From the NCBI GenBank assembly GCA_963720375.1, contig CAVRFM010000015.1:39988-103987 (forward strand): DNA of 64,000 nt. Direction: 5' to 3'. Shown piece by piece: positions 1-64,000 of the stretch. The stretch comes from an uncultured Chloroflexia bacterium (lineage in GTDB: Bacteria > Chloroflexota > Dehalococcoidia > UBA2247 > RBG-13-53-26). The position numbers were made by a program, and so were the translations under genes. The stretch's first letter is position 1. Each line of letters opens with the position of its first letter. The notes beneath the pieces are model-generated. The model saw only the letters and a program-made list of their open reading frames with translations. It ran no database searches and was not told where the DNA came from.

Positions 1-2026
1 GAGCCTGGCCGCCCCGAGCGGACGATAGGCCACACCACGCAGGGCTAATGGAATGAGTGCCATGATAATCAGAGCATTGAATATCACCGCCGACATAGAC
101 AGCACTCTGCGGCGTGGCCAAATGCATGAAATTCAGCGTTTTCAGGGCGGGGTAAGTGCTGGCAAAGGCTGCCGGGATAATGGCAAAATACTTGGACACG
201 TCATTGGCGATGCTAAACGTGGTCAAAGCCCCCCGCGTCATCAGCAGTTGCTTGCCTGTCTCCACAATGTCGATCAACTTGGTGGGATTGCTATCCAGAT
301 CGATCATATTGGCAGCTTCGCGAGCCGGCTGTGTCCCGGTATGCATTGCCACACCCACGTCGGCCTGTGCCAATGCCGGAGCATCGTTCGTGCCGTCGCC
401 GGTCATAGCTACAAGCCGTCCGCCAGTCTGATGCTCACGTATCAACTGGAGCTTAGTCTCAGGAGTGGCCTGCGCCAGGAAGTCATCCACTCCCGCTTCA
501 GCAGCAATCGCAGTTGCCGTGAGTGGATTATCGCCGGTAATCATAACTGTTTTTATGCCCATCCTTCGCAGTTGCGCAAAACGTTCCTTGATGCCGCCTT
601 TGACAATATCCCTCAGATGAACTATCCCCACGACTTCACCGTTGCGTGTCACCACCAGCGGTGTGCCACCGGCACGGGCAATGTGATCCACTCTGGTTTG
701 CACTTCCGGCGGCATTTGTTTTCCCTGCCCTTCAAGGTAAGCCCTGATGGCATCAACAGCGCCTTTGCGGATGCTCAGTCCCTCCATATCCACACCACTC
801 ATACGAGTCTGCGCCGAGAACGGCGTAAAATGCATGTCCTGAGGTCCAACGCCATCGGCACCTCCTCGCAGCCCATACCTTTCCTTTGCCAACAGCACTA
901 TGCTGCGACCCTCAGGGGTTTCGTCAGCCAGTGAAGCCAGTTGCGCCACTTCGGCCAGTTCATGGTCGCTCACACCCTCAACTGGTATGAATGCCACCGC
1001 CTGGCGGTTACCCAGAGTGATAGTGCCTGTCTTGTCCAGCAACAGTACATCCACGTCTCCCGCTGCTTCCACCGCACGGCCGGATAGGGCAATGACATTG
1101 CGGCGGATAAGGCGATCCATCCCGGCAATGCCGATGGCCGGCAGCAACCCGCCGATGGTGGTTGGGATAAGGCAGACCAGTAATGCCACGAGCACCGTGA
1201 TGGTGATCGGTGTGCCCTGATGATTCACTTCAGTACTGTACAGTGAGTACGGCAGCAGCGTGGTGCAGACAATGAGAAAGACAATAGTAAATGCCGCTAA
1301 CAGGATGTTGAGAGCGATCTCGTTGGGCGTCTTCTGCCGCTTTGCTCCCTCCACAAGGCTGATCATATGCTCGAGGAAGCCTTCTCCAGGATTGGCCGTT
1401 ACTTGCACGACCAGCCAGTCTGACAGCACGCGCGTCCCGCCGGTGACAGCACTCCGGTCCCCACCCGATTCACGAATAACGGGGGCGCTCTCGCCAGTGA
1501 CAGCGCTCTCATCCACCGAGGCGATCCCCTCGATTATCGCGCCATCAGCCGGGATAACATCACCGGCCTCTACCAGGAACGTATCGTCCTGCCGCAGTAG
1601 AGTAGAAGGAACCAGATCATATTCAGCCCCGTGCTTCGGACGCCTGAGCTTTTTAGCCTGAGTCTCCTGGCGTGTACGGCGCAGTGCAGCAGCCTGGGCT
1701 TTGCCCCGACCTTCAGCCAACGCTTCAGAGAAGTTGGCGAAGACCACACAAAGCCATAGCCAGAGCGACACGCCACCAATGAAGCTGGCTTTAGCCTCAC
1801 CATGCCCGAGAAGTGCCTGCACGAACAAGATGAGAGTCAATACACCGCCCACTTCGGTGACGAACATGACCGGGTTGCGTACCATGTAGCGGGGATTGAG
1901 TTTCAGGAAAGCATCAATAATCGCCTGGCGATAGATTTGCCATCCGAAAGCAGCTTGCTTTTTCAGAGACCCGGTTGCCGTGTCTTTGATTGGTTTGTCA
2001 CCTGTTATCTGTATGTCTTGCGCCAT
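1..2026 (-). CDS. kdpB: Potassium-transporting P-type ATPase subunit KdpB (3' end runs off the window; apparent frameshift near 100-106)
   Basis: Minus-strand translation from ATG 2024-2026 gives the [13 protein letters not shown] and [21 protein letters not shown] motifs and the [13 protein letters not shown] segment. After ...HLATPQSA the KdpB C-terminal motif [24 protein letters not shown] continues in a different frame. Confidence 0.85.
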
Positions 2027-2032
2027 CGGCTG

Positions 2033-3773
2033 TTACCTCAACATCAGGTGTTCTACAATAGGTCCCAGAGACAGGGCAGGCAAGAAGCTCAGGGCACCCA
2101 CAATAATGACCACCGCGATAAGCCAGGCGATGAATAGTGGCCCGTGTGTGGGGAGCGTGCCGGAGCTAGAGGGCACCTTCTTCTCACCCACCAGCGAACC
2201 AGCTATCGCCAGCGCCGGAATGGCCAGCCAGTACCGGCCGATGAGCATGGCAAAGCCCAGGGCGATATTGTAGAAGGGGGTATTCGTCCCGAGACCGGCG
2301 AAGGCACTGCCGTTGTTGTTACCTGCTGAAGAAAAGGCATAGAGCACCTCGCTGAAGCCATGCGCACCGGGGTTAAACACCGCCGCCCTACCCGCAGATA
2401 TGGACACGGCAATCGCCGTGCCGAGCAGCACGATCAGCACCGGGATCGAGTACCATGAGAGAAGCCATCTTCATTTCGTAGGCGCCGATCTTCTTGCCCA
2501 GATATTCGGGAGTACGCCCGATCATCAGCCCGGCGACGAACACCGCAATGATGACAAAAGCCAGCATGCCGTAGAGACCGGAGCCCACCCCGCCGTACAC
2601 CACTTCTCCCAGCTCCATAAGCCACATCGGCACTAAGCCACCGAGCGGTGTATATGAGTCATGCATGGAGTTCACCGAGCCGTTTGACGCCGAGGTGGTA
2701 GCAGTAGCCCACAAGGCTGAGTTGCCGATTCCGAAGCGCACCTCCTTGCCCTCCATATTGCCACCGGACTGCAGGTCGCTGGCCTTCTGGTCCACGCCAA
2801 GTTCGGTTAAAGTCGGATTACCGCGCTGTTCTGCCCAGACAGTTACGGACAGGCAGGCTACAAAGATAATGGTCATGGCGGCCAGTATCGCCCAGCCTTT
2901 GCGTGTGTCGCCCACCATCTTGCCGAAGGTATAGCACAGCGCAGCAGGGATGAGCAGGATTGCCAGCATCTCCAGGAAGTTCGAGAGGGGGGTAGGGTTT
3001 TCAAAGGGATGCGCCGAGTTAACGTTGAAGAAGCCGCCACCGTTCGTTCCGAGCATCTTAATGGCAACCTGAGAAGCAGCCGGGCCCAGCGCCAGGATCT
3101 GTCCACTAACGCTCTGGCCACTGGCATTGTCGGTCGACTGTAGAAGTGTCACTTCATGAGCGCCACTTAATGTCTGCACCACACCCTGCGATACCAGGAC
3201 CAGCGCCAGCACAAACGAGAGAGGCAGCAGGATGTACAGAATGCTTCGAGTCATGTCAACCCAAAAATTGCCTAACACCTTGCTGGAGTGCCTCACGAAG
3301 CCGCGTATCACGGCAATCAGTACCGCCATGCCTATAGCTGCAGAGACAAAGTTTTGCACCGTAAGTCCAACCATCTGGGTCAAATAGCTCATAGTGGTCT
3401 CGCCGCTGTAACTCTGCCAGTTGGTGTTGGTGACGAAGCTGGCCGCCGTATTGAAGGCCAGATCAGGTTTGACCGCCCCCAAATGCTGGGGATTGAGCGG
3501 CAGGACAGACTGAAGACGCTGCAGACCGTATAGCGCCAGCAGCCCCACAAAACTGAAGAGCAGCATGGCAATGGCATAAGTCTTCCAGTCCATCTCTTCA
3601 TCGGGGCGCATACCTACGATACGATAGATGAGGCGCTCGACAGGTCCGACAATACGGCCAAAGAACGTGCGCTCGCCCGCATAGACGCGCGCCATATAAG
3701 CTCCCAGCGGCTTAACAAGCAACAGCAGAACAACCAGATATAGCCCGAGTTGAAGCCACGTGAGGGTCGTCAT
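2033..3773 (-). pseudogene. kdpA: Potassium-transporting ATPase subunit KdpA, split by one frameshift near 2441-2450 (ORFs 2388..3782 and 2033..2440)
   Basis: The 464-aa ORF matches KdpA along its length ([38 protein letters not shown]). The 135-aa ORF supplies the KdpA C-terminus ([28 protein letters not shown]...GTLPTHG). Removing 1 nt near GATCCCGG joins them as ...[16 protein letters not shown].... Confidence 0.85.
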
Positions 3774-3862
3774 TTGAACCAATCCGGTTTCAAAAGCGCT
3801 AAGACGAGGTATACCAGCAGGCCTACAGAAATTACGCCTGAAACAATGTAGAGGACGTTCAT
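3770..3862 (-). CDS. kdpF: KdpF-like small membrane peptide (30 aa), stop overlaps the kdpA start as ATGA
   Basis: Translation [30 protein letters not shown] has the KdpF-like GxLxxYLVxAL...F pattern. Its stop is translationally coupled to the kdpA ATG. Confidence 0.6.
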
Positions 3863-3864
3863 AT

Positions 3865-4055: not shown

Positions 4056-4185
4056 GGACACTGCTCCCTTCCGCAAGAGTGTTTAGAGGCGGGGGTTGTG
4101 GATTGCTCGGGCAATAGGCGGGCACTAAGCCGCGCCTCCACCATCTCACATCTTTGAAGTCTCCCTCAACGTCCTCTCCAGTCCG

Positions 4186-6360
4186 TCATGCCACATTCCC
4201 CTCAGCCCGCTCCAGCTCGACGTCGATGAGCCCTTCAACAACAAACCTCCTGCCTCCCACCACCCCCAACTTTCTCATACCGATGCCATGCCGGGTTGCT
4301 TCCTTCTTCAGGCCAGCCACCCTCGCCGGGGCCACCGATACCACAAACCTCGAAGGCATCTCACCGTAAAGGGCGGCGTCCAACCTGCCCTTGATCTTCC
4401 AACCCCCTCTGAACCCGATGCCTCCGAAGAAGCAGCACTCAGCCAGGGCCACTGCCAGCCCGCCATCGGAGCAGTCATGAGCAGATTTGATGACACCGCT
4501 CCGGATCAGCGATAGGCAGCATCGCTGCACCCCTTTCTCCAGTTCCAGGTCTATCAAGGGTCTGCCGAGCACTAACCCGTGTATCAGCTCCAGATATTCA
4601 CTCCCCGCCAGCCCGCCTTCATTCAGGTCTCCCAGAAGAAACACCAGGTCGCCCTCATTCTTAAAGCCGCTGGTGCAGTATCTATCCACATCCTCAATCA
4701 AACCCACCATCCCCACCACAGGGGTAGGATAAACAGCCCGGCCCTTCGTCTCGTTATACAGGCTCACATTGCCGCTGATGACGGGGATATTGAGTCGGCG
4801 GCAGGCCGCAGCCATTCCCCTTATACACTCCTTGAGCTGGTAATAGATATCGGCCCTCTCCGGATTGCCAAAATTGAGGCAGTCAGTAATAGCCAGCGGC
4901 TCAGCCCCGGTGCAGACCAGGTTACGGGCCGCTTCAGCCACTGCCATCGCCCCCCCGTTAAAGGGGTCCAGATAGCAGTATCGTCCGTTTCCATCAGCGG
5001 TCAGGGAAATCGCCTTCGTAGTGTCTTTGATGCGCAGCACCGCCCCATCGCCTCCGGGAGGCACCACCGTATTGGTCTGTACTTGATGATCATACTGGCG
5101 ATATACCCATTCCTTGCTGGCAATATTAGGGCTCTCGAGCAATCTCAGCAGGACCGGCTGGCACTCCTTCGGAGAAAGATCGGGGACAGTCTCCAGGTCA
5201 AAGCGCTGCAGTTTTGTCAGCCATCCTGGTTTACGGCAGGGGACACGGTAGAAGGGAGGCTCCGACAGGAGTTTCACCGGCACCTCGGCGACCACCCTTT
5301 TCCCCTCTCTGATCCGCGCTATGCCATCATCAGTGACTTGTCCTATGATGTCTGAATGCAAACCCCAACGATCAAAAAGTCCCTTGACCTTATCTTCGCA
5401 TCCTCTCCTGACAACAACCAGCATCCGTTCCTGGGACTCGGAGAGCATCACCTCATAGGGATTCATCCCCTGTTCACGGCGGGGGACTTTGGCTGTATCC
5501 ACCTCTATCCCGCTGCCGCCTTTGGAGGCAGATTCCACAGCACTGCTGGTCAGCCCAGCTGCTCCCAGGTCCTGCACCCCCACAATCCAGTCGGTCTCGG
5601 CCAGTTCCAGGCAGGCCTCAATGAGCAATTTCTCCAGAAAGGGATTGCCTACCTGCACGGCAGAGCGCAACTCCCTTTGTTCCTCAAACGTCCGTGACGC
5701 CAGGCCGGAGGCACCGTGAAGGCCATCCCGGCCAGTGTCCGCTCCCACCAGCATCAAAAGGTTGCCGGAGCCAGCAGCTCTTGCCGTGACCAGTCTGTCG
5801 CTTTTGACAATGCCGACGCACATGGCGTTCACCAGGGGATTGTCCGAGTAGAAGGGAGAGAAATAGATTTCACCGCCCACATCCGGGATGCCCAGGCAGT
5901 TGCCGTAGGCAGCGATTCCCCCCACCACACCGTTGAAGAGATAGCGGTTGCGGGGTTCCTTCAGGGGCCCGAATCTCAAGGAGTTGAGCAGAGCAATGGG
6001 GCGCGCCCCCATGGTGAAGATGTCTCTCACAATTCCGCCTACCCCCGTGGCCGCCCCCTGGAAAGGCTCAATAGCCGAGGGATGATTGTGGGACTCCATC
6101 TTCATCACCACGGACAGTCCCTCACCGATGTCTACTGCCCCAGCATTCTCCTCCCCCGCCTTAACCAGGACCCTCTTGCCTGTGGTAGGGAAGAGCTTCA
6201 GCAGCAGCTTGGAGTGCTTGTAGCCGCAGTGCTCGCTCCACAGTGAGCCGAACATCCCCAGCTCTACTTCGGTGGGCTCTCTGCCCAGCCTCTGGACTAT
6301 GAGCTGGTATTCTGCTTCACTGAGGGCGACTTCATCGAGGGCTTCTTTGGAAACAGGCAT
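4186..6360 (-). CDS. purL: Phosphoribosylformylglycinamidine synthase subunit PurL
   Basis: 724-aa ORF with PurL / AIRS-like domains throughout. Confidence 0.93.
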   Translation of the reverse strand: MPVSKEALDEVALSEAEYQLIVQRLGREPTEVELGMFGSLWSEHCGYKHSKLLLKLFPTTGKRVLVKAGEENAGAVDIGEGLSVVMKMESHNHPSAIEPFQGAATGVGGIVRDIFTMGARPIALLNSLRFGPLKEPRNRYLFNGVVGGIAAYGNCLGIPDVGGEIYFSPFYSDNPLVNAMCVGIVKSDRLVTARAAGSGNLLMLVGADTGRDGLHGASGLASRTFEEQRELRSAVQVGNPFLEKLLIEACLELAETDWIVGVQDLGAAGLTSSAVESASKGGSGIEVDTAKVPRREQGMNPYEVMLSESQERMLVVVRRGCEDKVKGLFDRWGLHSDIIGQVTDDGIARIREGKRVVAEVPVKLLSEPPFYRVPCRKPGWLTKLQRFDLETVPDLSPKECQPVLLRLLESPNIASKEWVYRQYDHQVQTNTVVPPGGDGAVLRIKDTTKAISLTADGNGRYCYLDPFNGGAMAVAEAARNLVCTGAEPLAITDCLNFGNPERADIYYQLKECIRGMAAACRRLNIPVISGNVSLYNETKGRAVYPTPVVGMVGLIEDVDRYCTSGFKNEGDLVFLLGDLNEGGLAGSEYLELIHGLVLGRPLIDLELEKGVQRCCLSLIRSGVIKSAHDCSDGGLAVALAECCFFGGIGFRGGWKIKGRLDAALYGEMPSRFVVSVAPARVAGLKKEATRHGIGMRKLGVVGGRRFVVEGLIDVELERAEGNVA

Positions 6361-6434
6361 ACCTTTATCTTCACCTACTCTAATGGGGGCAATTGATAGA
6401 ACCAGTGGCGTTTGGTCTTAATCAAAGACATCAG

Positions 6435-7382
6435 CTACGTTTGTGGGCTAGGTTTGCGGACAAAAGGCAACCAAGAGAAGAATCTCCGCCATTCACCTTT
6501 ATCCCAGACTATTAACAATTGGCTCGCATTACAAACCGAGCTGTAGGTGCCAGTAACAACACCGATCAGAAGAACAAGAGTGAAGTTGTGAATAGTGCCC
6601 CCGACAAGAAGAAGCAGCGTTAGGAGAACCAGGAACACGGTCAGTGACGTATTCAGTGAGCGGGTCAATGTCTGCACAATACTAATGTTCACCGTTTCCT
6701 CGAAGTCATTGCCTATATGCTTACTCATGTTCTCTCGAATGCGGTCGAAAACCACAATCGTGTCATGAACGCTGTAGCCAGCCACGGTAAGCATTCCGGT
6801 AATAAACATTACATCGACTTTCACCCCGACCACCCAACCAAGAATAGAGAAGATGCCCATAACTACCAGGATATCGTGAATCAAGGCAATGATGGCGCAG
6901 ACACCCCAGCGGAAAGGACTGGGCATTTTCCTAAAAGCAAAGGTGATGTAAAGTAGAATGCCAACAGCGGCGATGGCAACGGCTATGGCTGCATTGCGGG
7001 CTGTCTCACTGGCTACCATGGGAGACACAACCAAGTACTCCGGTTGTTGATCTGCCGGGAAAGTATACTGGAATTCGCTCTCAATGCCCGTTGTAATTCT
7101 CTCTTCGTCCGAAGTAGCAAGAATGCCTGGAATCGTTATGTAGAACGAGTTATCGCCCGTATTCTGAACAAGATAATCAGTGTATCCCAAAGACGACATC
7201 TCACCACGAAGGTCACCCTCTGACACAGTGACATTGTCGCCCAAAGTGAGCGTGATGGAGGTGCCACTCTTGAAGTCGACCCCTGGCTTGAGTCCAAAAA
7301 CCGCCAGAGAGATTATCCCGGGAATAATAACCAAGGCTGAGAGAAGGAAGAACCAGTACCTCTTGCCGACGAAATCAATCAT
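6435..7382 (-). CDS. secF: Protein translocase subunit SecF (the ORF extends to 7418; the start is probably the MIDFVGKRYWFF methionine)
   Basis: SecF transmembrane pattern and position after secD. Confidence 0.88.
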   Translation of the reverse strand: MIDFVGKRYWFFLLSALVIIPGIISLAVFGLKPGVDFKSGTSITLTLGDNVTVSEGDLRGEMSSLGYTDYLVQNTGDNSFYITIPGILATSDEERITTGIESEFQYTFPADQQPEYLVVSPMVASETARNAAIAVAIAAVGILLYITFAFRKMPSPFRWGVCAIIALIHDILVVMGIFSILGWVVGVKVDVMFITGMLTVAGYSVHDTIVVFDRIRENMSKHIGNDFEETVNISIVQTLTRSLNTSLTVFLVLLTLLLLVGGTIHNFTLVLLIGVVTGTYSSVCNASQLLIVWDKGEWRRFFSWLPFVRKPSPQT

Positions 7383-9042
7383 CTTCTGCCCCTGCCGCAG
7401 GCTTCGTTTCCACTCCAAACCAGTTCAGATTCCTGGTAGCCCGAGATCCGGAGAGGAAGGTCAAAAGTAGAGTCCGTGAGATTACGACGGCGCTGAACAT
7501 GCTCACAGCAACTCCAATAAACAGCGTCAGAGCAAAGCCCTTCACGGTTGAACTGGCGACTATATGGCTACCAAACCAGTATAGGATGATGCAGGTGATA
7601 AAGGTACTGATATTGCTGTCACGAATCGAAGGCCACGCTCGGCTGAAGCCAGCGTCTATAGCTGCTTTGAGAGTGCTCCCCGCCCGCAACTCCTCTTTCA
7701 TCCTTTCGAAGATGAGCACGTTGGCGTCCACAGCCATACCCATGGATACGACAAAGCCAGCAATCCCAGCCAAGGTTAATGTCACCGGAATCAGTTTGTA
7801 GATGGACAGAACGATCAGCGTATAGATAATAAGAGCCGCTGTGGCTACAACACCTGGCAGTCGATAGTACAAGATCATGAACAACGCCACTATCAGCAGC
7901 CCAACCATGCCGGCCACGAAAGCCTTGCGTACAAAATCTGCGCCGAGGGTGGCTGAGATTTGACTTTCAAAGAGCGTCTTCAGGGGAACCGGCAGAGCGC
8001 CTGAGACCAGCTGGACCGCCAGATCTTGAGACGAATTAGCATCGAAGTTCCCAGTGATCTGGTCATTGCCGGCAGATGCCGACTCTTCCATCTGAGGGCT
8101 GGAGATTAACTTACCATCAAGCACAATACCCAGCAGACTACGCGGATCCGCCGAGCCAGAGCTATAGTACGCGTTAAGGCGAGCTGCGATCTGGTTGAAG
8201 ATGGTGGTTCCGTCACTATTCCAACCAATGCCGACTGCATAAGTGACAGCGCCTAGTGAGTTTGTGCTTACCTGCCTCTTGGCGCTTGTAAGATATGATC
8301 CGGTGAGCTGTGTTACCACCCCATTCAGGGTCCCGGTAGCCGGCTCCCAGCTCAGGGCTGCCGTGTCGCTCGATCCCAGCGCAGACAGATTATCGGCTAG
8401 GACGTTCCCATCTTCGTCAGCCTGGTAAAGAACATTCCCGCTGTTGTCCGTTAACGTACGAGTTCCATTGTCCCCTACATTGAAAACGGCCACAGGGTCC
8501 TGGCTCGCAGAGGTGTAGAATATACGGCTGCCCGGGACACTCGTCTCGAAGAATGCGGCGAAGTTTTCACTCATATAGTCATTGAGGGTAACCGTACTGC
8601 TATCTGCGGGCTTCCGTTCGACCTCCCTGAACTCAAGGAAGGCCGTCGCTTCTATCACGCTCTTGGCTGTCTCAACATCGGTTATGCCTGGCAACTCCAC
8701 CAGGATACGGTCTGCCCCTTGCTTCTGTATGACGGGCTCAACTACGCCCAGGCCATTTACACGGCTCTCAATGCTCTTAATAGCGCCGTCTACAGCATCC
8801 GCCTTCTGCGTATCTGTCAAATTCTCTGTAAGTTTTGAAAAGTCAGCCTGATAGACCAGTTGCACGCCGCCCTTCAGGTCCAGCCCCAGTCGCAGTCCCA
8901 GGTCGTCCGACTCATGGTGAAGAGCACTAGAGCCGCTGGGAGACATCAACCAGATGGATACGCCGATGATGACTATGATAAGGAGTAGAAACCAGCGGTT
9001 CCAGAGAAATCGCTTCGCTGTCCTTGTTGGTCGCTTCATCAT
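7375..9042 (-). CDS. secD: Protein translocase subunit SecD
   Basis: 555-aa ORF with the SecD periplasmic domain and C-terminal transmembrane bundle, followed by secF. Confidence 0.92.
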   Translation of the reverse strand: MMKRPTRTAKRFLWNRWFLLLIIVIIGVSIWLMSPSGSSALHHESDDLGLRLGLDLKGGVQLVYQADFSKLTENLTDTQKADAVDGAIKSIESRVNGLGVVEPVIQKQGADRILVELPGITDVETAKSVIEATAFLEFREVERKPADSSTVTLNDYMSENFAAFFETSVPGSRIFYTSASQDPVAVFNVGDNGTRTLTDNSGNVLYQADEDGNVLADNLSALGSSDTAALSWEPATGTLNGVVTQLTGSYLTSAKRQVSTNSLGAVTYAVGIGWNSDGTTIFNQIAARLNAYYSSGSADPRSLLGIVLDGKLISSPQMEESASAGNDQITGNFDANSSQDLAVQLVSGALPVPLKTLFESQISATLGADFVRKAFVAGMVGLLIVALFMILYYRLPGVVATAALIIYTLIVLSIYKLIPVTLTLAGIAGFVVSMGMAVDANVLIFERMKEELRAGSTLKAAIDAGFSRAWPSIRDSNISTFITCIILYWFGSHIVASSTVKGFALTLFIGVAVSMFSAVVISRTLLLTFLSGSRATRNLNWFGVETKPAAGAEDD

Positions 9043-23075: not shown

Positions 23076-23190
23076 CGGCAAGATTATAGCCAATCGAAGC
23101 TTGAACCTCAATCGTAGCCATAACAGATTCTCCCACCAGTAATCTTGGCCAAGAGGCACCAAACCTGCTATAGTTACCCTGGCTTTCGAG

Positions 23191-23964: not shown

Positions 23965-24765
23965 ATGGAGAAACAAGGCTTTACCCTGGAAGCGGTAGCC
24001 CTGGCCTTTCTTACTTCACTGCCACCAGAAGAAAGAAAAGAAAAGCAGCAAGAAGTAAATAAATTTGTCCTCTGGTATGGCAAGGAACGTCTCATCAGTC
24101 AGGTCACCCCTGTGGTAGTAGCCAACTACGCTGAGTCGGTAGCCGCATCGACTGGTGATGCTACCAAGAAGCTTGAGCCGGTGAGATCCCTGCTAACCTA
24201 TGCCAAGAAGGAGAAGCTCATCAAGACCAGCTTGGCTCCACACCTCAGGATAAAACAGACCTCGTCCAAGACTCCCATACCCACCAAGCCAAAGCAGCAG
24301 ATCGCTCTGACAGCCGAGGACTATGCCCTGTTGAAGTCACAACTTTCTTCCCTGGAGGAAGAGCGTGTACACGTCGCAGAGGAGATGCGCATAGCCGCCG
24401 CCGACAAGGATTTTCGCGAAAATGCCCCGCTGCACGCAGCTAGAGAGCACCGCGATCACATAGAAGCCCAAATGAAAGAAATACAGACTGCCATCACCAC
24501 CGGAGTAATAGTCGAGGCAGACAAACCAATGGAAACCCCTACCGTTACCGTGAGGCTGAGAACCAAGGTCGTTCTACGCGATATCGCTTCCGGGAAAGAG
24601 CTGACTTATACCCTGGTCACTAAGAACGAGGCTAACCCGGCAAATGGCAAGATCTCGATCATCTCCCCCATAGGCAAAGCGCTCTTGAACCAACCCCAGG
24701 GCGCCGTGGTGAAAGTAATCGCCCCGGCAGGTGAACTGCACTATCAGATCCAGCACATCGAATAG
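23965..24765 (+). CDS. greA: GreA-like transcript cleavage factor with an N-terminal extension of about 100 aa
   Basis: Residues from about 103 onward have the GreA coiled-coil (DFRENAPLHAAREHRDHIEAQMKEIQ) and the C-terminal FKBP-like domain (ISIISPIGKALLNQPQGAVVKV). The N-terminal third is unique. Confidence 0.8.
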   Translation: MEKQGFTLEAVALAFLTSLPPEERKEKQQEVNKFVLWYGKERLISQVTPVVVANYAESVAASTGDATKKLEPVRSLLTYAKKEKLIKTSLAPHLRIKQTSSKTPIPTKPKQQIALTAEDYALLKSQLSSLEEERVHVAEEMRIAAADKDFRENAPLHAAREHRDHIEAQMKEIQTAITTGVIVEADKPMETPTVTVRLRTKVVLRDIASGKELTYTLVTKNEANPANGKISIISPIGKALLNQPQGAVVKVIAPAGELHYQIQHIE

Positions 24766-34921: not shown

Positions 34922-34939
34922 ATGCTAGAATGGCCTCGT

Positions 34940-36077: not shown

Positions 36078-36132
36078 GATGGTGAGACTCCTTGTTGATA
36101 CTGCGTTGCGATTTTATGTTCTTTTTTACTCT

Positions 36133-36173
36133 TTGTCAATACTTACGGCAACAATATTGACAAAATGTATAAT
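36133..36173 (+). promoter_or_regulatory. Perfect 9-bp inverted repeat TTGTCAATA-N13-TATTGACAA (candidate operator) abutting a TG-TATAAT extended -10 element for the downstream 146-aa / HD operon
   Basis: Inverted-repeat arms at 36133-36141 and 36155-36163. TG at 36166-36167 and TATAAT at 36168-36173. Lies in the divergent intergenic region between the XRE regulator and the operon. Confidence 0.5.
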
Positions 36174-36264
36174 AGTGGTAATCTGTTTGTTGTAAGGGCG
36201 TGGTTCCCCTATAATTGGAGCCCCACCGTCAGTCCGGTGGTCTCAGGAAGAAGGAGGTGGGATC

Positions 36265-38215: not shown

Positions 38216-38285
38216 GATCGCAAGCGGTGCCAGTGCGATGGTACTACATTCGCCGCCTAAGTCCGTCAGCTTGCCCGCTATCCCT

Positions 38286-39200
38286 CTAGAGATCAACCTG
38301 GACGGAATTGTTGGTGCCGGCGCGTACCGCCATCATTTGTGAAGCATAACTCTCTGGCACTCGCATTTGATGGCCGAGTGCCGTCTTCTCATCAAAGCGA
38401 TGCACGGCGGCTTGCTGTAAACCCGGTGCAATATGGCTGTACGTGTCGAGCAAAAGTGATGGATATACTGGAATGCCACAGCTTGCCTTAAACGACTTTT
38501 GGGGTGTATTCCCTATTTGCCATATGGATGTAGACATAATCTCCAGGACTTGACGTCCTCTGCTAGCCGTCTGATATCATCCGAGGTGACTTCCAGTTAC
38601 ACGCATCCCGATAGTGCTTTTACACAACAAGTGCCCAATTGGGGCAAGGGCAAGACTACTCATCAAAGGGGGAGGTAGCAAATGGCGAGACAGTGTAAAA
38701 CAGTAGAGATAGTGTACAACGCAAGAGGTCGAGATGTCTTGACATGGTGTATAAAGACAGCTTTTCTCTCCTTGATAACACTGGGGTTCTACTTGCCTGT
38801 TGCCGCAAATAAGCTTGTGAGATATCTGTGCGAGCACACAAAGATACGCATAGACGAGTCAGAGGTCTCAGGAACGTAGTTCGCAGCCTTGGCTGCTAGC
38901 AACCTGCTGAACATGAAATGGCATTGGTTGGTATTTTACAGATCGAGTGTGTCACTACAGAGAGAATCTCATATCAGTCAACAAGACATAAAGTAAACCC
39001 CTTGACCTGGGAAACAGGGACGGTTGTAAACTCATGAAAGGCTTTTCGGGGGCAACCCTTCTAAATATAAATGGAACCAATCCTCAAGAGCAACGCAACA
39101 TAAAGATAAGCCCTTGACCAGCCCAAGGAGGGCAGTTCTATACTTATCAAGCCGCATCCTCGGAGAGAAGGCTTTATTCGGTAATTTCTCGCTTCTTAAC
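38286..39200 (-). pseudogene. Decayed tyrosine recombinase (phage-type integrase) gene remnant
   Basis: Minus-strand frames give ...PKVV*GKLWHSSISIT (LGHSSI box with an in-frame TAA), then a shifted frame gives LLDTYSHIAPGLQQAAVHRFDE (catalytic-Tyr box). Upstream frames are broken. No intact ORF over 90 aa. Confidence 0.5.
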
Positions 39201-39253
39201 TAATTCCGAATCCTCACGTCGCAGAGCAAGACTTTTTAGCTCTAAAGGGGGGT

Positions 39254-40570
39254 ATGAAAACAGCTAAAGAGACTTGGGAGACTGCCAAAGGGGCCCTTCA
39301 GGTTCAGGTTAGCAAAGCCAACTTCGACACTTGGCTAAAGGACACTGTAGGGATCAGTCACCAAGGAAATCAATTTGTAATCGGAACTCCCAGCGCTTTC
39401 GCCAAGGAATGGCTGGAAAAGCGTCTTCATTCTTTGGTAACGAAGGTGCTCATCAGCATTGTAGGGCATGAGATTGAGGTTCAGTTCCAGGTCTGCCCGG
39501 ACCAGGACTCTGTCTGGCAGGGCCAGGACCACTCACAATCGAAGCTGCCATTGCCAGTGGGCAACCCGAGGTATACTTTCGAAAACTTCGTTGTCGGGGG
39601 TTCAAACCGTCTTGCCTACGCTGCTGCATTGGGGATATCTGAGGAGCCAGGGCGGCAGTACAATCCGCTTTTCATCCACGGTGGATCCGGCCTGGGAAAG
39701 ACCCATCTTTCCCACGCGATAGGGAATGAAGCTTCCGAAAACGGATTCAAGGTCGTTTATACTGGCAGCGAGCAATTCACCAATGAGTTCATAAGTTCAA
39801 TCAGGGAGAGAAGGACAGAGGAGTTTCGCAGCAAATTCAGGAACGCTGACATTCTCGTCATAGAGGACATCCAGTTCCTGGTTGGCAAACCCTCGACACA
39901 GGAAACACTGTTTCACACCTTCAATGAACTGCATGACACCAATCGCCAGTTGGTTATCACCAGCGATCGCCCTCCAAAGGCGATGACTACCCTGGAGAGC
40001 AGCTTATGTTCCCGCCTCGAAAGCGGGCTTATTGCCCAAGTTGAAGCACCTGACCTGGAAACACGTTTGGCCATCCTTCACGCAAGGGCCGAGGAACAGC
40101 AGGTTGTCATCGACGAAGCCGTATTCGATTTCATCGCCCAGCGTTGCCAGCGAAATGTCAGGGAACTAGAGGGAGCCCTGACTGCGCTTATCGCCGATGC
40201 AAAGATGTCACAGCAGCGTCCTACACTGGAGCTGGCGCAGGAGGCTCTGCGCGATATGCCTTCGGATAATTTAGGCTCATATGCTACTACCCCGGCATCG
40301 ATATTGAAGGCAGTGGCCGACCACTTCCAGGTGAGTTTAGAATCCCTGAAAGGCCGTAAGAGAGACAATCGATTAGCCATGGCGCGACACATCGCCATCT
40401 ACCTTGTACGAGAGAAGACAAATTGCCCCCTGCAGGATATCGGCAAATTGCTTGGCGGCAGAGACCACTCCACTATTCTCAGGGGCTATCATAGAATCGC
40501 CGGCACAGTTTCTACTGATCCCGCAGTGCAGAGAAACATCCATCAGATTGTGGCTAATCTTCCCACTTAG
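39254..40570 (+). CDS. dnaA: Chromosomal replication initiator protein DnaA
   Basis: Walker A GGSGLGKTHL, AAA+ sensor motifs and the C-terminal DNA-binding HTH (ARHIAIYLVREKT...LGGRDHSTIL). Confidence 0.95.
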   Translation: MKTAKETWETAKGALQVQVSKANFDTWLKDTVGISHQGNQFVIGTPSAFAKEWLEKRLHSLVTKVLISIVGHEIEVQFQVCPDQDSVWQGQDHSQSKLPLPVGNPRYTFENFVVGGSNRLAYAAALGISEEPGRQYNPLFIHGGSGLGKTHLSHAIGNEASENGFKVVYTGSEQFTNEFISSIRERRTEEFRSKFRNADILVIEDIQFLVGKPSTQETLFHTFNELHDTNRQLVITSDRPPKAMTTLESSLCSRLESGLIAQVEAPDLETRLAILHARAEEQQVVIDEAVFDFIAQRCQRNVRELEGALTALIADAKMSQQRPTLELAQEALRDMPSDNLGSYATTPASILKAVADHFQVSLESLKGRKRDNRLAMARHIAIYLVREKTNCPLQDIGKLLGGRDHSTILRGYHRIAGTVSTDPAVQRNIHQIVANLPT

Positions 40571-40767
40571 GTATATTACTATTATTATCTACTATCCAAA
40601 CATCACCCATTCTACTAGACTACTAATACACAATAAGATCCTGTGCATTCAATAAGTGCAGTCAGGCACAGTTGGGCATGTGCTACTAGCCATAACTTTG
40701 AGAGTGGGTGGGAGGGTAGGTATTATGTGCAAATCGTGCAGATGGTCTGTAAAGCAGTAAGACTGGC

Positions 40768-41373: not shown

Positions 41374-41647
41374 GTTGTGTGGGCTGATCAAGTTGAGCGT
41401 TATTCATATACGGATACCCAAGAAACGTTGGTATAGTCCAAGAAGGTGGTGCTAAATGAGATGCCCCAAATGCGGTTATTGCAGCTTTGATGAGGGATGT
41501 AACCATGCCTCTAGCTGATAGAGACTACATGAGAAAAGAACATCCTCCTGCTTGCACCTGCGTTGAGTGCGAAAGGCGAAGGGCAAACAAGGGCAGACGG
41601 CGCACGGGGGAATCTCTCTGGAGTAGAACAATTGGGAGGCTGTTCTC

Positions 41648-42193
41648 TTGGATGCGCTGATGGATGGAGACGTATCAATGTCGCAGGAACGTGATAACGC
41701 TCTCACTAAGGTAGAACTGGCTCGCTACTTCCTCGAACTCATGAAACGTATTGAGAACAGCAGGGCACCTTTGCTACAGGGGAGCACTGCTCTGAGTGTC
41801 CTACAAGAGTACACTTCCTACTTGGATGGATTCTGGGCTGAGTGCTACAGTGCCACACGCTATTTCGATGATGTCAATCCTAAGTGTGCAAAGGCACTTA
41901 AAGACTTTCGAGAAAAAACGCAGGGAGATTTCTACGCATGGGGTACTGGTAAGCGTTCCATATCCGTTCACCACAAACCAGTTGAGCCAAAGAGGGAAGG
42001 CTATATGCCGCCACGAGGAGACAACATTGGTGGGCAACTCTTAGAATACGACCCCCCAAATTGGAACAAGATCAATTCCAAACTGAACGACTATTACTAC
42101 TTCACTGATGATCCTTCGGAGCAGCCGATAACTAGGCAGTGTGAGAGTCACTTAGCAGAACTAGAGAAGTTCATAAAGCAGAATTGTCCATGA
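41648..42193 (+). CDS. Hypothetical protein (181 aa; the start may be the Met at 41678)
   Basis: ORF with no recognisable motif. Lies upstream of, and co-oriented with, the protease gene. Confidence 0.5.
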   Translation: MDALMDGDVSMSQERDNALTKVELARYFLELMKRIENSRAPLLQGSTALSVLQEYTSYLDGFWAECYSATRYFDDVNPKCAKALKDFREKTQGDFYAWGTGKRSISVHHKPVEPKREGYMPPRGDNIGGQLLEYDPPNWNKINSKLNDYYYFTDDPSEQPITRQCESHLAELEKFIKQNCP

Positions 42194-42227
42194 CTGGCAC
42201 CTATGAGGCAAGATAAAATGAATATCA

Positions 42228-43088
42228 TTGATCGGGGATATCAATATGCGCGTACCTGACGAGGTTCGCCAATGCGTCGTGTTTGTGGGGCTTGGAGACG
42301 GCAAGGGAGGAGTGTCATTCAAAGGGACAGCTTTCTTCGTTAGTGTACCTTCCAAGAGCAAACCTGAAGTTAGTTACCTATACTTGGTAACAGCCAAACA
42401 TGTGGCAGCCTTACTGCAAGACAAACCATTCTTAATCCGAGCCAACACGAATGATGGGAAGTCATGCGTAATTGGAGGCGCAAGAGTACATTGGTGGTAT
42501 CATCCCACCGATCCTTTCGTAGATGTAGCCATCATCTCTTGGGTACACCCCGAAAACATGCCCCTTGACTATCTTGAATACAAACACATTCCAACTACAA
42601 TGTTTTTGTCCGATGAAGCTATATATAGTCGTGCTATCGGCACAGGGGATGAGGTATTCATCACTGGGCTTTTTGCACATCTGACAGGCTCATCAAGAAA
42701 CCTGCCAATAGTCCGCATTGGCAACATAGCCATGTTCCCTACAGAGCCAGTACCGACACGTATCGGCAACATCGAAGCTTATTTGATCGAAGCTAGATCA
42801 ATTGGAGGTTTAAGTGGTTCTCCTGCCTTTGTCATCCAAACAGCTCCACCTGAAGTTGGCAAGCTTTACCTTTTGGGATTGATGCATGGTCACTGGGATA
42901 TCCCCCCAGAGGCAAAGAACGACCAACTGGTAATGGACAATGATCACTATAAGCAGGTGAATATGGGCATAGCGATTGTAATTCCAGCTAAGAAGATATT
43001 GGAGGTTATGAACCAAGAAATACTAGACACATGGAGAAGACTAGAGGATCAGAAGATGCAGAAAGAACAAGTACCACCGCCAATGTGA
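42228..43088 (+). CDS. Trypsin-like (chymotrypsin-fold, S1-type) serine protease
   Basis: Catalytic-triad context VTAKHV (His), DVAII (Asp) and GGLSGSP (Ser). Confidence 0.65.
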   Translation: MIGDINMRVPDEVRQCVVFVGLGDGKGGVSFKGTAFFVSVPSKSKPEVSYLYLVTAKHVAALLQDKPFLIRANTNDGKSCVIGGARVHWWYHPTDPFVDVAIISWVHPENMPLDYLEYKHIPTTMFLSDEAIYSRAIGTGDEVFITGLFAHLTGSSRNLPIVRIGNIAMFPTEPVPTRIGNIEAYLIEARSIGGLSGSPAFVIQTAPPEVGKLYLLGLMHGHWDIPPEAKNDQLVMDNDHYKQVNMGIAIVIPAKKILEVMNQEILDTWRRLEDQKMQKEQVPPPM

Positions 43089-43223
43089 AGTATGAGGATT
43101 GAAATATGAATAACGCTGAAGTTGATGAAGCCTCGCTCTGAACACTATAATCTACTGGCTGGTCTAACCGAGAGTATTAGGGAATCGGACTCCATCTAAG
43201 TTAGACTACTCTAGTTAATCATT

Positions 43224-44798: not shown

Positions 44799-45506
44799 GT
44801 GAGCTGGTGGGCCCAGGTAGGCGAGTTTAAGGGCAAGTTTGTCGATTTAGTCTTTCCACCCCGTTGTGTTGGCTGTGGGAAGGATGGTGCTTTCATCTGC
44901 TCGCCATGTTGCGGGACTATCGCTCGCCTTACGCCTCCGCTCTGTCCCATGTGCAGCAAGCCACTACTTCAGGAGGATTATTGTCCCTCTTGCCGGAGGT
45001 TAAGACTGGAGATCGATGGTATCCGTTCACCCTTCGTTTTTCAGGGCACGGTGCGTCGGGCCATTCATCAGTTCAAGTACAGGAACTTTAAGGCGCTGGC
45101 TCTTCCACTCTCGCAGTTGCTGGCTCAGTATTTGGAAACCAAGCCCCTGCCTGGGGATGTTCTTGTCCCGGTTCCGCTTCATTCCCGTCGGTTGCGTGAG
45201 CGAGGGTATAATCAATCCGGGCTCTTGTCTCGGGAACTCGGGAAACTGCTTGGTCTTCCAGTCGTAGAGGATTCGCTAGTCAGGCTTCGGGACACGCGGG
45301 CTCAAGCCAGGACTTCTGATGCCGAAGAGCGTCGAGGTAATGTACTGGGGGCCTTTAGCTGCCGAGATGAGAGGTTGAAAGGGAGACGGGTACTTCTCGT
45401 TGATGATGTGTGTACTACAGGGGCCACGTTGAATTCCTGTGCCATCGCCTTGAAGGGAGCTGGCGCCAGCTCTGTTTGGGGTTTGGCCTTAGCTAGGGAA
45501 GGATGA
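44799..45506 (+). CDS. ComF-family protein (double zinc ribbon plus phosphoribosyltransferase domain)
   Basis: CVGCG...CSPCC...CPMC...CPSC ribbons and a [14 protein letters not shown] PRTase motif. Confidence 0.8.
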
Positions 45507-46742
45507 GTATGAAAGAGTTGCCGAAGAAAGACCCGGAGATTGCCTCACTAATTAAGAGGGAAGAGGAACGGCAGCAACGCAAGCTGGTGTTCATCGCTGC
45601 TGAGAACCACACCACTCGGGCGGTACTGGAGGCACAGGGCTCTGTCCTTACCAACAAGTACGCCGAAGGCTACCCGGGGCGCCGCTACTACAGTGGTTGC
45701 CAGGAAGTAGATGAGGTGGAGAGAATAGCAGTTCTCAGGGCGAAGGAGCTCTTTCATGCTGAGCATGCCAATGTTCAGTCTCACAGTGGAAGTCAGGCCA
45801 ATGCGGCGGTTTATCTTGCCTTACTCAACCCCGGGGATAAGGTAATGAGCATGAGCCTGGCTCATGGGGGACACCTCACCCACGGAAGTCCGGTCAGTTT
45901 CTCTGGAAAGTTATATAGATTCATTCATTATGAAGTAAACCGGGAAACGGAGCGGCTTGACTATGACGAGGTGGAGCGCCTGGCCAAAGAACATAGACCG
46001 AAGCTGATTGTGGCGGGAGCCAGTGCCTATCCCAGGATTATTGACTTTGAGAGGTTTCATCATATTGCTGAAGAGGTGGGGGCGCAGCTTATGGTCGATA
46101 TGGCTCATATAGCTGGCCTGGTGGCTGCTGGAGTACATCCTTCACCGGTACCCTTGGGCGCAGGTAGTCACTGCGACCACACAAAAGACTCTGCGTGGGC
46201 CCCGGGGTGGCTTTCTTCTTGCTAAGCAGGGGTTGGGCAAAATCCTGGACTCCGCTGTTTTCCCTGGCACGCAGGGTGGCCCCCTGATGCACGTCATTGC
46301 TGCGAAGGCAGTGTGTTTCCATGAGGCAATGCAACCCGAGTTTGTTACTTACCAGCAAAAAATCCTGGAGAATGCCAGGGTTTTGGCTGATGAATTGCAG
46401 AAGTTGGGTTTCCGGATCGTTAGCGGAGGCACAGATAATCATCTCCTCCTTATCGACCTTCGCGGGACAGGGATAACGGGTAGGGTAGCGGAGGAAGCCC
46501 TTGATAGTGTTGGCGTCTCTGCCAACCGGAATGGCATCCCCTTTGATCCTCTTCCACCGCAAACCACGAGCGGATTGAGGCTTGGGACTCCTGCAGTGAC
46601 TACAAGGGGACTCGGTCCGCAGGAGATGAGACAAATAGCCTCGCTAATCCATAGAGTGCTGACCAATCTCGGGGATGAGAAGATAAAACTTGAGGCCTCT
46701 CAGGAAGTGGAGGGGATCACCCGCCGCTTTCCGCTGCCCTGA
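45503..46742 (+). pseudogene. glyA: Serine hydroxymethyltransferase GlyA, split by one frameshift near 46153-46157 (ORFs 45503..46225 and 46233..46742)
   Basis: ORF1 matches SHMT up to HPSPVP and then diverges. The +1 frame continues [22 protein letters not shown]...SAVFPGTQGGPLMH (PLP-lysine region) into ORF2. Confidence 0.85.
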
Positions 46743-47918: not shown

Positions 47919-48944
47919 TTGGACAAGAAGCCAAAGATTGAAGGTTCGGCTCGTAAGGGAACGCCTGCGCGCAGGCGTTCCAGATGGGATAAGGAGAAGA
48001 GGTGGCTGTACATCATCGAGGCCATAATCGTGCTGACTATTGTTGCCGTTCCGGCGCTAGTTGGTTATGGCTATTATGACACCCATATCAAACCCTGGCA
48101 CCAGCCTATCTTGAAGGTGAATGACACCACCATCGAGATGACCTCCTTTGTCAAAATGCTGCGCTTGTATCAGAGTAATGCAAGCTACTATTCAGATAAT
48201 ACGAGTTGGGCTCAAGATGAGGCGACCACAATGGAAGAGAATGAGCTTATGAAGCAGGGGCTGAAGAAGGACTTTGGCATTGTTGTCAGCGACAATGCTA
48301 TCGAAGGGAAGTTGCAGGAGCTATTGACTTCGTACAGCATGACTGCGGACCAACTCAAGACGAATCTCGCCACGATGAAGATATCGGTGGAGGATTTCAA
48401 ACAAATGTACATAGAGCCATCCCTGGTGCAGTCTGATCTGCAGCAACAAATTGGTGACCAGGATTACCCCGCGGATCAGGAGTTTGATCATGTCAGAGTT
48501 CAGGCCATGCTTGTAGCAGGTGCAGATAATGCCACTGCGGTGAGAGACAGATGGCTCGCGGGCGAGGATTTCAATACACTGGTCACCGACTACTCGCCGT
48601 CCAAGTACTACCCCAGCACTTCCTCGGATAATACTACGGTAGAATGGATACCCCGGGGCATTGAGAGTACTGCCTTTGATGACTATGCCTTTGCCGACGG
48701 GTCTGAAAACAGCACAGTGAGTGATGCGATTCCTGAGAGCGAAGGCTCAGGGGACTACTGGCTGATAAAGGTGCTGGAAAAGGGGTCGAGGTTGCTCAGT
48801 GATGGTGACAGAAGTACGTTAATCAGCAATGCGTTTGACAAGTGGCTTCAGGATGCGGAGAGCGCCGAAGCTAATAAGATGGTGAATTATCTGGATAGCG
48901 CAGACGGTTACTCGAAAATCTACTGGGCTCTGGACCATATCTAG
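47919..48944 (+). CDS. Membrane-anchored parvulin-type peptidyl-prolyl isomerase (SurA/PpiD-like)
   Basis: Basic N-terminus and one TM helix. C-terminal PpiC-type rotamase-like segment (HVRVQAMLVAGADNATAVRDRWLAGEDFNTL). Confidence 0.6.
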   Translation: MDKKPKIEGSARKGTPARRRSRWDKEKRWLYIIEAIIVLTIVAVPALVGYGYYDTHIKPWHQPILKVNDTTIEMTSFVKMLRLYQSNASYYSDNTSWAQDEATTMEENELMKQGLKKDFGIVVSDNAIEGKLQELLTSYSMTADQLKTNLATMKISVEDFKQMYIEPSLVQSDLQQQIGDQDYPADQEFDHVRVQAMLVAGADNATAVRDRWLAGEDFNTLVTDYSPSKYYPSTSSDNTTVEWIPRGIESTAFDDYAFADGSENSTVSDAIPESEGSGDYWLIKVLEKGSRLLSDGDRSTLISNAFDKWLQDAESAEANKMVNYLDSADGYSKIYWALDHI

Positions 48945-55146: not shown

Positions 55147-56011
55147 TCATATATGCAAAGAGAGGTTGTGAAGAATCCGGCTGACTGTCTCAGCGCGGTT
55201 AAGCGTATAGAAATGGAAGAAGCGGACTCCGTTTTGCCATAGATCTTCGCACTGCCTGGTGGCGAATTCTATGCCCATTCCCTCAACTTCATCCGGGGAA
55301 CTGGCGTTCTCCATCCGCTGGATGAGCGTAGTCGGCAGCGTCGCCCCGCAGGTCTTCGTAAACCGCTTTATCTTTGCCACATCTGTTATGGGCATAATGC
55401 CCGGGATAATCGGAATCCGAATCCCGACTGCCCCTGCCTTTTCCATAAGATTGTAGAAGAAGCGGTTGTCGAAGAACATCTGAGTGATGGCAAAGTCGGC
55501 TCCTGCTTCGATCTTCTGCTTGGTGTAGAGCAGGTCACTCTCAATACTGGAGGCCTCGAGGTGCCCTTCAGGATACACAGCGATCCCTATGGAGAATGCC
55601 TTGAAGGACGCTGCCAGCTTCACCACGTCAATGCCGTGGCGGCTGGTGACATCGGCGGTCACCCCCGGCTCCCCCTCCGGGAGATCTCCTCTGAGCGCGA
55701 GAATATTCTCCACGCCCAATTCCTGATAGTCTCGTAGCATACTCCTCAAGCCCTCATCGCTTTCACCGATACAGGTCACGTGTGGCATCGGGCTGAGGGC
55801 GGTTTCCTGCACGATCCGTTCTACCACATGTCTCGGTATTCTTGCGGGTACTGCCCCCGGCTCCATAGGTTACGGAGACGAAACCGGGCTTGAAGGCCTG
55901 TAACCTTCGAATAGTATCAAAAAGCTGCTTTTCACCCGCCTCCGTCTTCGGCGGGAAAAACTCAAATGAAATACCCTTGTTCTGATGCTCAAGAATATGC
56001 TTTATTCTCAT
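55147..56011 (-). pseudogene. metF: 5,10-methylenetetrahydrofolate reductase MetF, split by one frameshift near 55830-55836 (ORFs 55763..56011 and 55147..55866)
   Basis: ORF1 gives FEFFPPKT...[16 protein letters not shown] then nonsense. The other frame continues [22 protein letters not shown] and the rest of the MetF TIM barrel. Confidence 0.85.
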
Positions 56012-57124: not shown

Positions 57125-58682
57125 TTGAAGGTTGTTACCAGCGAGCAGATGCGAGAGATCGAGCAGCGTGCTGCTGCCATAGGTCTGCCCTCTGAAGTGC
57201 TGATGGAAAAGGCCGGGTTGGCTGTGGCACGGGAGGTGAAAGGGTGGCTGGGTGGTGTTGCCGGACGCCGTATCCTGGTTCTGGTAGGCCCGGGGAATAA
57301 CGGTGGTGATGGGTTGGTAGCTGCCCGGCACCTGCACGATTGGGGGGCCGACGTTTATCTCTACTTCCCGGGAAAGCGTGCGGATTCCGATATCAATTAT
57401 CAGCTTACTCAGAGGAGGGGCATTCATACCCTGTCAGCCATCCAGCGCGATAGTTCGGCTGCCCTCGATAGTCTGCTGCCGTCAATAGAGGTGGTTGTCG
57501 ATGCCCTGTTCGGTACCGGCAAGACGCGACCCATAGAGGGTGTTTTCAAACAGGCATTGTTGAAGAGTGATGGAGGCGAAGGAAAGGAATAGAAATCTCC
57601 GGCTTGTTGCCGTTGATCTTCCTTCGGGACTTAATGCAGATACAGGGGCCGTCGATGCTGCTTGCCCTGCCGCCGATTTTACTGTGACGCTTGGTTATCC
57701 CAAGCATGGGTTGTTTGCTTTCCCCGGTGCGGGTAAGGTTGGCAGGCTTGTTGTGGCTGATATTGGCATACCGTCAAAGCTGGCAGAGGATATTCCCACA
57801 GAGGTGGTTACCCGCGAGAAGGTAAGAGGGTTGCTTCCGGAGCGCCCGCCGAATGCCAATAAGGGTACCTTCGGCAGGATTCTTGTAGTCGGCGGCTCAA
57901 TCAATTACATCGGCGCAGTCTATCTTGCCTGCACCGCCGCTGCCAGGGTGGGGGTGGGACTGGTGACGCTCGCCACTGCTCGCAGCCTTCAGCCTATCCT
58001 GGCTTCGAAGCTGACAGAGGTGATCTATGCTCCATTGCCGGAATCAGAGCCGGGCATTGTGACGGCTGATGCGTTTGAAACCATTCGGCCATCACTGGCT
58101 AACTATAATGTCCTTCTCCTGGGTTGTGGCTCCGGACAAAGTCGATCTGTGGCTGAATTCATAAGATCAGTCTTTTCTTTGGCCGACTTGCCTGCCCTGG
58201 TTCTTGATGCTGATGCCCTCAACGCATTGGCTGGGATATCCCAATGGTGGCAGAAGCTGCCTTGCGATGCTGTGCTCACCCCGCATCCTGGGGAAATGGC
58301 GAGGCTCACTGGACTCTCTGTGGATGAAATCCAGTCCAGGCGGCTGAGCGTGGCCAGGGAGGCAGCCGTTTCATGGCAGAAAACCATCGTGCTCAAAGGG
58401 GCCTATACTATAGTGGCTGCGCCGGATGGCAGGACGGTGATCAACCCTACAGCGAACCCGGGGCTGGCTTCAGCAGGGACTGGAGATGTGCTCGCCGGAG
58501 CGATCGCCGGACTGGCAGCTCAGGGGCTCAGCCTCTTCGATGCTGCTATTGCAGGGGTATTCCTTCACAGCCAGGCCGGGGAGCTGGTGAGAAAGGATCT
58601 GGGGGATGCGGGAATGCTGGCCAGCGACCTTTTGCCTGTTCTGCCGGTAGTTATCAGCAGGCTCAAGGATGATTCTCTATGA
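57125..58682 (+). pseudogene. nnr: Bifunctional NAD(P)H-hydrate repair enzyme Nnr (YjeF-N epimerase plus YjeF-C dehydratase), split into ORFs 57125..57592 and 57567..58682 by an apparent frameshift near 57560-57590
   Basis: ORF1 ends DALFGTGKTRPIEG.... ORF2 starts in another frame with ...LRLVAVDLPSGLNADTG, the end of the epimerase domain, and runs through the carbohydrate-kinase-like dehydratase domain. The ORFs overlap by 26 nt. Confidence 0.75.
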
Positions 58683-63516: not shown

Positions 63517-63564
63517 GCAGAGACTTCTGGGAAATCTGATGGGGAAGGGGGTTTTGGATCAGGA

Positions 63565-64000
63565 ATGGCTATTGAACCAATTGAAAAGAAATTAGAAAAC
63601 CTTGCCAAACTCAGGGAACAGGCAAAGCAGGGCGGGGGTGCCAAGCGCATCGAAGCCCAGCACGCTAAGGGTAAACTTACTGCCAGGGAGAGGATCAACC
63701 TTCTTTTCGATCGCGGTACCTTTGAGGAGTTGGATTCCTTCGTTACTCATCGTTCGAGCGAATTCGGCCTGGATGAACAAAGATTCCTGGGGGATTCCGT
63801 AGTTACCGGCTACGGCAAGATTGATGGCAGGATGGCTTATGTCTATTCCCAGGATTTCACGGTAATTGGCGGCACGCTGTCACTGGTAGCATCAGAGAAA
63901 ATCTGCAAGGTGATGGACCTGGCAGCTAAGAATGGGGCTCCTTGCATTGGCTTGCTTGATTCGGGCGGAGCGCGGATTCAGGAGGGAGTGGACAGCCTTA
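63565..64000 (+). CDS. Acyl-CoA carboxyltransferase beta subunit (propionyl-CoA carboxylase / methylmalonyl-CoA decarboxylase alpha-type), 5' part; runs off the window
   Basis: [13 protein letters not shown]...[14 protein letters not shown]...GGTLS...SGGARIQEG carboxyltransferase N-domain motifs. Confidence 0.8.

Follow-up and report, generated by a model that had tools for sequence, protein, structure and literature searches.

The 64-kb stretch of DNA analysed here in full, hereafter the window, belongs to the chromosome of an uncultured member of the Dehalococcoidia (Chloroflexota) and derives from contig CAVRFM010000015.1 of assembly GCA_963720375.1. Within it, six of the approximately 64 protein genes counted (~9%), namely kdpB, kdpA, purL, glyA, metF and nnr, carry window-specific frameshifts, each caused by one single-base insertion (+1), and two further insertions of this kind lie between genes. 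The extra bases exist in the sequence, are absent from all same-species contigs, and at four to five of the eight sites occupy polymorphic positions at which they merge two observed alleles. Comparison with sequences of related strains indicates that the disruptions are very probably artefacts of consensus building or polishing, introduced when co-occurring strains were collapsed during metagenome assembly. As such, the lesions in the six genes and at the two intergenic sites are not a biological feature, and gene decay is not supported.

Apart from these lesions the window has an unremarkable composition: its coding fraction is 0.887 (88.7%), Pfam scans of about 50 of its open reading frames (ORFs) returned an ordinary housekeeping set, and no insertion sequence (IS) elements were seen across the 64 kb. 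The nearest entries in a species-representative collection were metagenome-assembled genomes (MAGs) of Dehalococcoidia having at most 80% amino-acid identity, which served for synteny. A panel of much closer sequences was assembled by homolog searches with the repaired MetF and KdpA proteins, which retrieved homologs 93-97% identical and of exactly the repaired length, followed by contig look-ups in ENA, Logan, NCBI and JGI. Individual contigs are denoted by L numbers. The panel comprises strain A (ERR11594402 / ERZ25039480; L089-L091, L096, L097), strain B (SRR18214653 and SRR18214612; L082, L083, L092, L093, L098), GCA_026389585.1 (L084, L085) and several other ENA and Logan contigs; it represents at least four other samples, and its nucleotide identity to the window is 93-99% over the approximately 58 kb that it covers.

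One same-species contig retrieved, L102 (JGI Ga0031655_10010134), bears two single-base deletions in ubiE, one in a G-run and one at GGG/CCC, aligned to window positions 31043 and 31148; the ubiE gene of the window is intact. Since L102 is itself frameshifted, it is unfit to judge the window. Public relatives carry indel errors of their own, and are not trustworthy singly.

A preliminary description, made from the sequence alone, had reported single frameshifts at non-homopolymer sites in five housekeeping genes (kdpB, kdpA, glyA, metF and nnr). All five are borne out, each gene being split between two frames by a +1 shift, and the count falls one short, having missed purL; the account of the sites is also correct, in that no insertion lies within a run of three or more bases. 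Coordinates of these genes and of the remaining lesions are collected in the table below. In kdpB, which leaves the window at its start, the frame is shifted over the last ~33 codons visible; only the corrected frame, not the full length, could be checked for this gene, and removal of one base renders the local protein sequence identical to that of L088. The downstream part of KdpA (IPVLIVLLG...) reads in another frame than the part preceding it, and the corrected protein has 579 amino acids (aa), the length of 16 homologs at 95-97% identity. The extra base in purL replaces the last 19 residues with six wrong ones, such that the product as read has 724 aa and ends ...ERAEGNVA*, where relatives end ...ERARGMWHDGLERTLRETSKM*; the corrected product, of 737 aa, matches the length in the two closest strains, and its C-terminus is identical to that of strain A. 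In glyA, positions 2-221 and 264-399 of the Pfam SHMT profile occur in separate ORFs (corrected length, 412 aa). MetF as read lacks the first 58 profile positions, which reside in another frame, and when corrected has 287 aa, as do the full-length members among those listed of a 25-member cluster. The YjeF_N domain of Nnr is divided over two ORFs (corrected length, 518 aa).

Table. Single-base insertions and other reading-frame lesions in the 64-kb window (positions are those of the window).
Feature	Position	Strand	Description
kdpB	1..2026	-	K+-transporting ATPase B subunit; 3' end beyond window start; extra base at 97/98
kdpA	2033..3773	-	extra base at 2447, sense CTC[G]ATC; split into ORFs 2388-3782 and 2033-2440
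purL	4146..6360	-	FGAM synthase II; extra base at 4204-4208
glyA	45503..46742	+	serine hydroxymethyltransferase; extra base at 46150-46154; ORFs 45503-46225 and 46233-46742
metF	55147..56011	-	methylenetetrahydrofolate reductase; extra base at 55832-55835, sense AC[C][G]AGA
nnr	57125..58682	+	bifunctional NAD(P)H-hydrate repair enzyme; extra base at 57563-57566
single-base insertion (C)	15850		between mogA-like gene and FAD-dependent oxidoreductase gene; non-homopolymer; window-specific
single-base insertion (C)	43134		upstream of dut; non-homopolymer; window-specific; absent from L091, L093 and L094
putative tyrosine integrase C-terminal remnant, ~37 aa	38388..38502	-	one in-frame stop and one frame change, by blastx

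Removing one base restores, in every complete gene, the length found in the closest strains, and all six corrected frames, including that of kdpB, are free of internal stops. All six genes are intact in the panel (L081-L088, L091-L095 and L096-L098), with lengths of 579 aa for KdpA, 708 for KdpB, 737 or 744 for PurL, 410 or 412 for GlyA, 287 for MetF and 518 or 519 for Nnr, and the insertions are missing even from strains 98-99% identical to the window (L091, L094, L097). Throughout the same-species alignments, the only coding indels of a length not divisible by three are the six window-specific +1 insertions: every coding indel that distinguishes one relative from another is a multiple of three, and no window-specific coding deletion was present in these alignments. 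Breakage of six among ~64 genes is well above the level usual for conserved genes. When the window was compared by blastx with all ORFs of the retrieved relatives, no further frame change in real genes came to light, and no nonsense codon in a conserved frame.

Together with the two intergenic sites, this yields eight window-specific events at non-homopolymer positions, all of them insertions. Six are coding and two non-coding, a division that fits the coding fraction, and the events have therefore not been filtered by selection. The flanks of the intergenic site at 15850 are otherwise indistinguishable from strain A, with 0 mismatches per 98 nt on each side relative to L089/L090. Clustering of the sites was also considered: the largest gap among the six coding sites, 42 kb, has a rough P of ~0.01, but with the two intergenic sites included the clustering loses significance (~0.1), and we make no claim for it.

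The feature most informative as to origin is the relation of the inserted bases to alleles of other strains. At purL the plus-strand string CTCAGCCCGC is a merge of CTC-GCCCGC (L097) and CTCAGCC-GC (L098); at glyA, GGTACCCTTGG merges GGT-CCCTTGG (L082, L091, L093, L094) with GGTACCC-TGG (L084, L095); and at nnr, TTGAAGAGTG merges TTGA-GAGTG (L082, L083) with TTGAAG-GTG (L081, L084). The sense string of kdpB, GTCTATG, corresponds to GTC-ATG in L085-87 and GTT-ATG in L088. In metF the correspondence appears at the level of alleles, where the sense string ACCGAGA confronts ACG AGA in L091 and ACC in L081, L082 and L084. Formally, the window carries a one-base supersequence of two observed haplotypes at kdpB, purL, glyA and nnr, using flanks of k = 3-4, and metF passes the same test at k = 1-2, for a total of four to five of the eight sites. 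Simulation over the covered parts of the window showed that a random single-base insertion creates such a supersequence, joining the window's own string with another observed haplotype, in 2.3-2.9% of cases, giving a chance probability of ~3e-5 for four of eight sites and ~1e-6 for five of eight. Because the test at the real sites allowed small shifts of the comparison window and the null simulation did not, we also quote a conservative bound of <=2e-3, obtained with a generous null of 8%. A switch of haplotype at each site was examined as well and is suggestive at glyA and nnr; it is not used as evidence because the window agrees with strain A both before and after the glyA site.

A sequence of events that could produce these strings is readily envisaged. 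In the source metagenome a single Dehalococcoidia species would have been present as at least two strains, approximately 97-99% identical. A difference between strains, whether one substitution or, especially, two adjacent ones, would be aligned as an insertion in one and a deletion in the other, and a consensus or polishing step that then retained both variants would leave a string one base too long; inside a gene, that string would break the reading frame. We infer that an assembler or polisher produced the extra bases, and we suspect that the sequencing platform was a long-read one.

A comparable outcome is described for a collapsed diploid long-read assembly of Trypanosoma brucei Lister 427, in which, according to the published account, nearby allelic variants shift homology and the resulting INDEL errors truncate ORFs (Cosentino et al. 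2021, PMC8445201). The likeness lies in the window's extra bases being at variant sites with two haplotypes merged; in the T. brucei account the frameshifts vanish once haplotypes are separated (PMC8445201). The two cases differ in that the trypanosome errors concern two alleles of a diploid eukaryote and, as that account presents them, were verified with reads, whereas those in the window would concern bacterial strains and are deduced from other assemblies (PMC8445201). More generally, fragmentation of genes by indel errors is well known from long-read assemblies of bacteria and MAGs, and Kastor is described as addressing it (PMC12007338). The window resembles the errors treated there in that conserved genes look pseudogenic within a contiguous assembly and close relatives reveal the errors (PMC12007338).

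Several observations weigh against the interpretation as collapsed strains. At three sites (kdpA, 15850 and 43134) only one matching haplotype occurs in the panel; for kdpA, panel relatives are only ~94% identical. For the intervals 27.7-28.7 and 33.7-38.5 kb, together approximately 6 kb, the panel offers no same-species sequence for comparison. The insertions in metF and nnr, and one reading of that in glyA, may also be described as doubling of a single base to two, and the purL insertion, depending on the relative taken as reference, is readable as CC to CCC. Finally, the artefact is deduced by comparison with other assemblies rather than observed in reads.

Among the alternatives, ordinary random indel errors of sequencing or consensus, arising for example from low-coverage long reads and unrelated to strain polymorphism, would likewise render the lesions artefactual. 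A uniform error process would accommodate the frequency of eight events in 64 kb (~1 per 8 kb), their 6:2 coding split, and the three sites lacking a second haplotype in the panel, and the homopolymer differences from strain A at 17687, 18455 and 20843 do resemble classical long-read noise. Random long-read errors nevertheless concentrate in long homopolymers, as do classical errors of long-read assembly, which include deletions as well. The window's events differ from these in comprising insertions only, outside long homopolymers, at polymorphic sites; the 6:0 ratio of coding insertions to deletions has P = 0.03 under equal rates. Random error would also be expected to reproduce both alleles of a polymorphic site in only 2-3% of cases, as against the four to five of eight observed. 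We regard this explanation as unlikely.

The more consequential alternative is that the frameshifts are real and very recent, specific to one strain in which kdp, purL, glyA, metF and nnr are being lost through incipient decay or a +1 mutator. The disruptions are, after all, present in the sequence as given, and many bacteria can do without the kdp genes and nnr. Pseudogenes accumulate in recently host-restricted or reduced bacteria such as Mycobacterium leprae and Shigella, and the share of conserved genes disrupted in the window (~9%) is comparably high. Yet purL and glyA are central biosynthetic genes. Real decay leaves a mixture of nonsense codons, deletions and IS insertions, strikes the same gene more than once, goes with relaxed selection and produces damage that relatives have in common; no mark of this kind was found in the window. 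In place of mixed lesions with several per gene, each gene has one +1 insertion in a frame otherwise open and conserved. Selection does not appear relaxed in the disrupted genes: when the repaired genes are compared with their closest relatives, the ratio of nonsynonymous to synonymous polymorphism (pN/pS) lies at 0-0.19 nine times out of ten and at 0.32 in the remaining case (nnr versus L081), no different from the 0-0.62 found for intact neighbours. By rough estimate, neutral drift over the 1-3% divergence between strains would have left several nonsense codons in these genes, and none was seen. Lesions are not shared with close relatives, the genes being intact in all same-species contigs, and coding density is high (0.887) in a window where no IS elements were seen. 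Lastly, the insertions reproduce alleles of other strains, and we know of no mutational process that sets another strain's alternative allele beside the resident one. Decay of this kind is accordingly a distinctly improbable account of the lesions.

Taken on its own, the proposition that the extra bases are real requires one strain with very recent +1 insertions in ~9% of its genes, purL and glyA included, and we consider it very improbable. If it were true, one would have to suppose a mutator biased towards insertions or an abrupt end to selection, for instance through a shift to dependence on a partner, and the coincidence with polymorphic sites would hint at a form of mutation linked to recombination, with both alleles left side by side. 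There is next to no prospect that full-length proteins are restored in vivo by programmed +1 ribosomal frameshifting or transcriptional slippage: all shifts have the one direction, but the sites share no common motif (GTCTATG, CTCGATC, GCTGAGG, GTACCCT, ACCGAGA, TTGAAGA), like events occur between genes, and the idea is effectively refuted by orthologs that are unshifted in strains 97-99% identical.

The preliminary description had left the choice between a draft assembly with uncorrected indels and an organism undergoing gene decay. The first of these is upheld in the form of allele merging at polymorphic sites; the second is not supported, given the single lesions, normal pN/pS and intact relatives. 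Its caution over every ORF call in the window was well placed. At face value the window implies an organism whose capacities for potassium uptake, for purine synthesis and one-carbon metabolism and for NAD(P)H repair are disappearing, and metabolic reconstructions or pseudogene counts based on the uncorrected sequence would be wrong. It is advisable to regard the six genes as intact, to call genes with tolerance for frameshifts and to re-polish in a strain-aware manner. The test for supersequences of two haplotypes may serve, without recourse to reads, to separate merged-allele artefacts from real pseudogenes in other MAGs.

The remnant of an integrase, which the preliminary description had pooled with the disrupted genes as bearing both an indel and a nonsense codon, is a different matter. 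Its in-frame stop and its frame change were both seen, in a fragment colinear with residues 351-387 of an intact 447-aa ORF in L079; that match is weak (E = 0.002), and the fragment is not poolable with the six insertions. Membership among tyrosine recombinases was judged by the C-terminal catalytic region including the ...LGHSSI...LDTYSH... tyrosine motif, with the L079 match as its sole support; Pfam and PDB sequence searches with the stitched fragment gave no match. In this case a gene of a mobile element seems truly to have decayed, separately from the six insertions.

This remnant lies in a 3.4-kb strain-variable island (35100-38520) situated between tRNA-His/tRNA-Arg (34941-35094) and the region upstream of dnaA. 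The island further encodes a helix-turn-helix protein (35685-36077, minus strand), an ORF at 36265-36705 (plus) and an HD-domain protein (36686-38215, plus) having the Pfam domains HD and HD_assoc_2 and a weak PADLOC match to dGTPase (4e-8). It is missing in the syntenic relative L001, and the same-species contigs L091 and L092 cease aligning at 38522. One possible reading of the island is an integrated element, now degraded, with a dNTPase-like gene for defence. The replication origin falls within 34000-40600, where the cumulative GC-skew minimum occurs at ~34-38 kb, dnaA occupies 39254-40570 (plus), and a long non-coding stretch (38.6-39.25 kb) lies upstream of dnaA.

Other regions also vary among strains. 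A slot between nadD and dut (41600-43100) contains an ORF (42228-43088) lacking a Pfam match and assigned by PADLOC to the candidate defence family PDC-S45 (1e-14); elsewhere this slot holds a ClpP-like gene (strain B) or a DUF4145 gene (L094). The secF/secD genes (6400-8600) show 0-3 mismatches per 500 nt relative to strains A and B and are ~70% identical to those of GCA_026389585-type relatives, whose flanks are ~94% identical, a pattern suggesting that recombination within the species complex has replaced the allele here. A hypervariable patch at 48000-48500, within a hypothetical gene (47919-48944) whose protein has no Pfam or PADLOC match, displays ~64 mismatches per 500 nt and several in-frame indels in comparison with strains 97-99% identical elsewhere. 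Strain A has ~2.1 kb of extra sequence (L089/L090 13959-15942), absent from the window, at the position corresponding to 23115-23160, between AIRS-family and metallophosphoesterase genes; this segment encodes a 584-aa ORF without a Pfam domain and an 81-aa ORF.

Intergenic single-base length differences from same-species contigs were noted at 3984, 17687, 18455, 20843 and 59489, mostly in G, C or A runs of 3-7 bases; they may reflect variation that exists in nature or homopolymers miscalled in one assembly or the other. The GreA homolog at 23965-24765 (266 aa) has an N-terminal extension of ~110 aa preceding the GreA_GreB_N domain, which appears genuine for the lineage because the corresponding gene call in strain A is of equal length.

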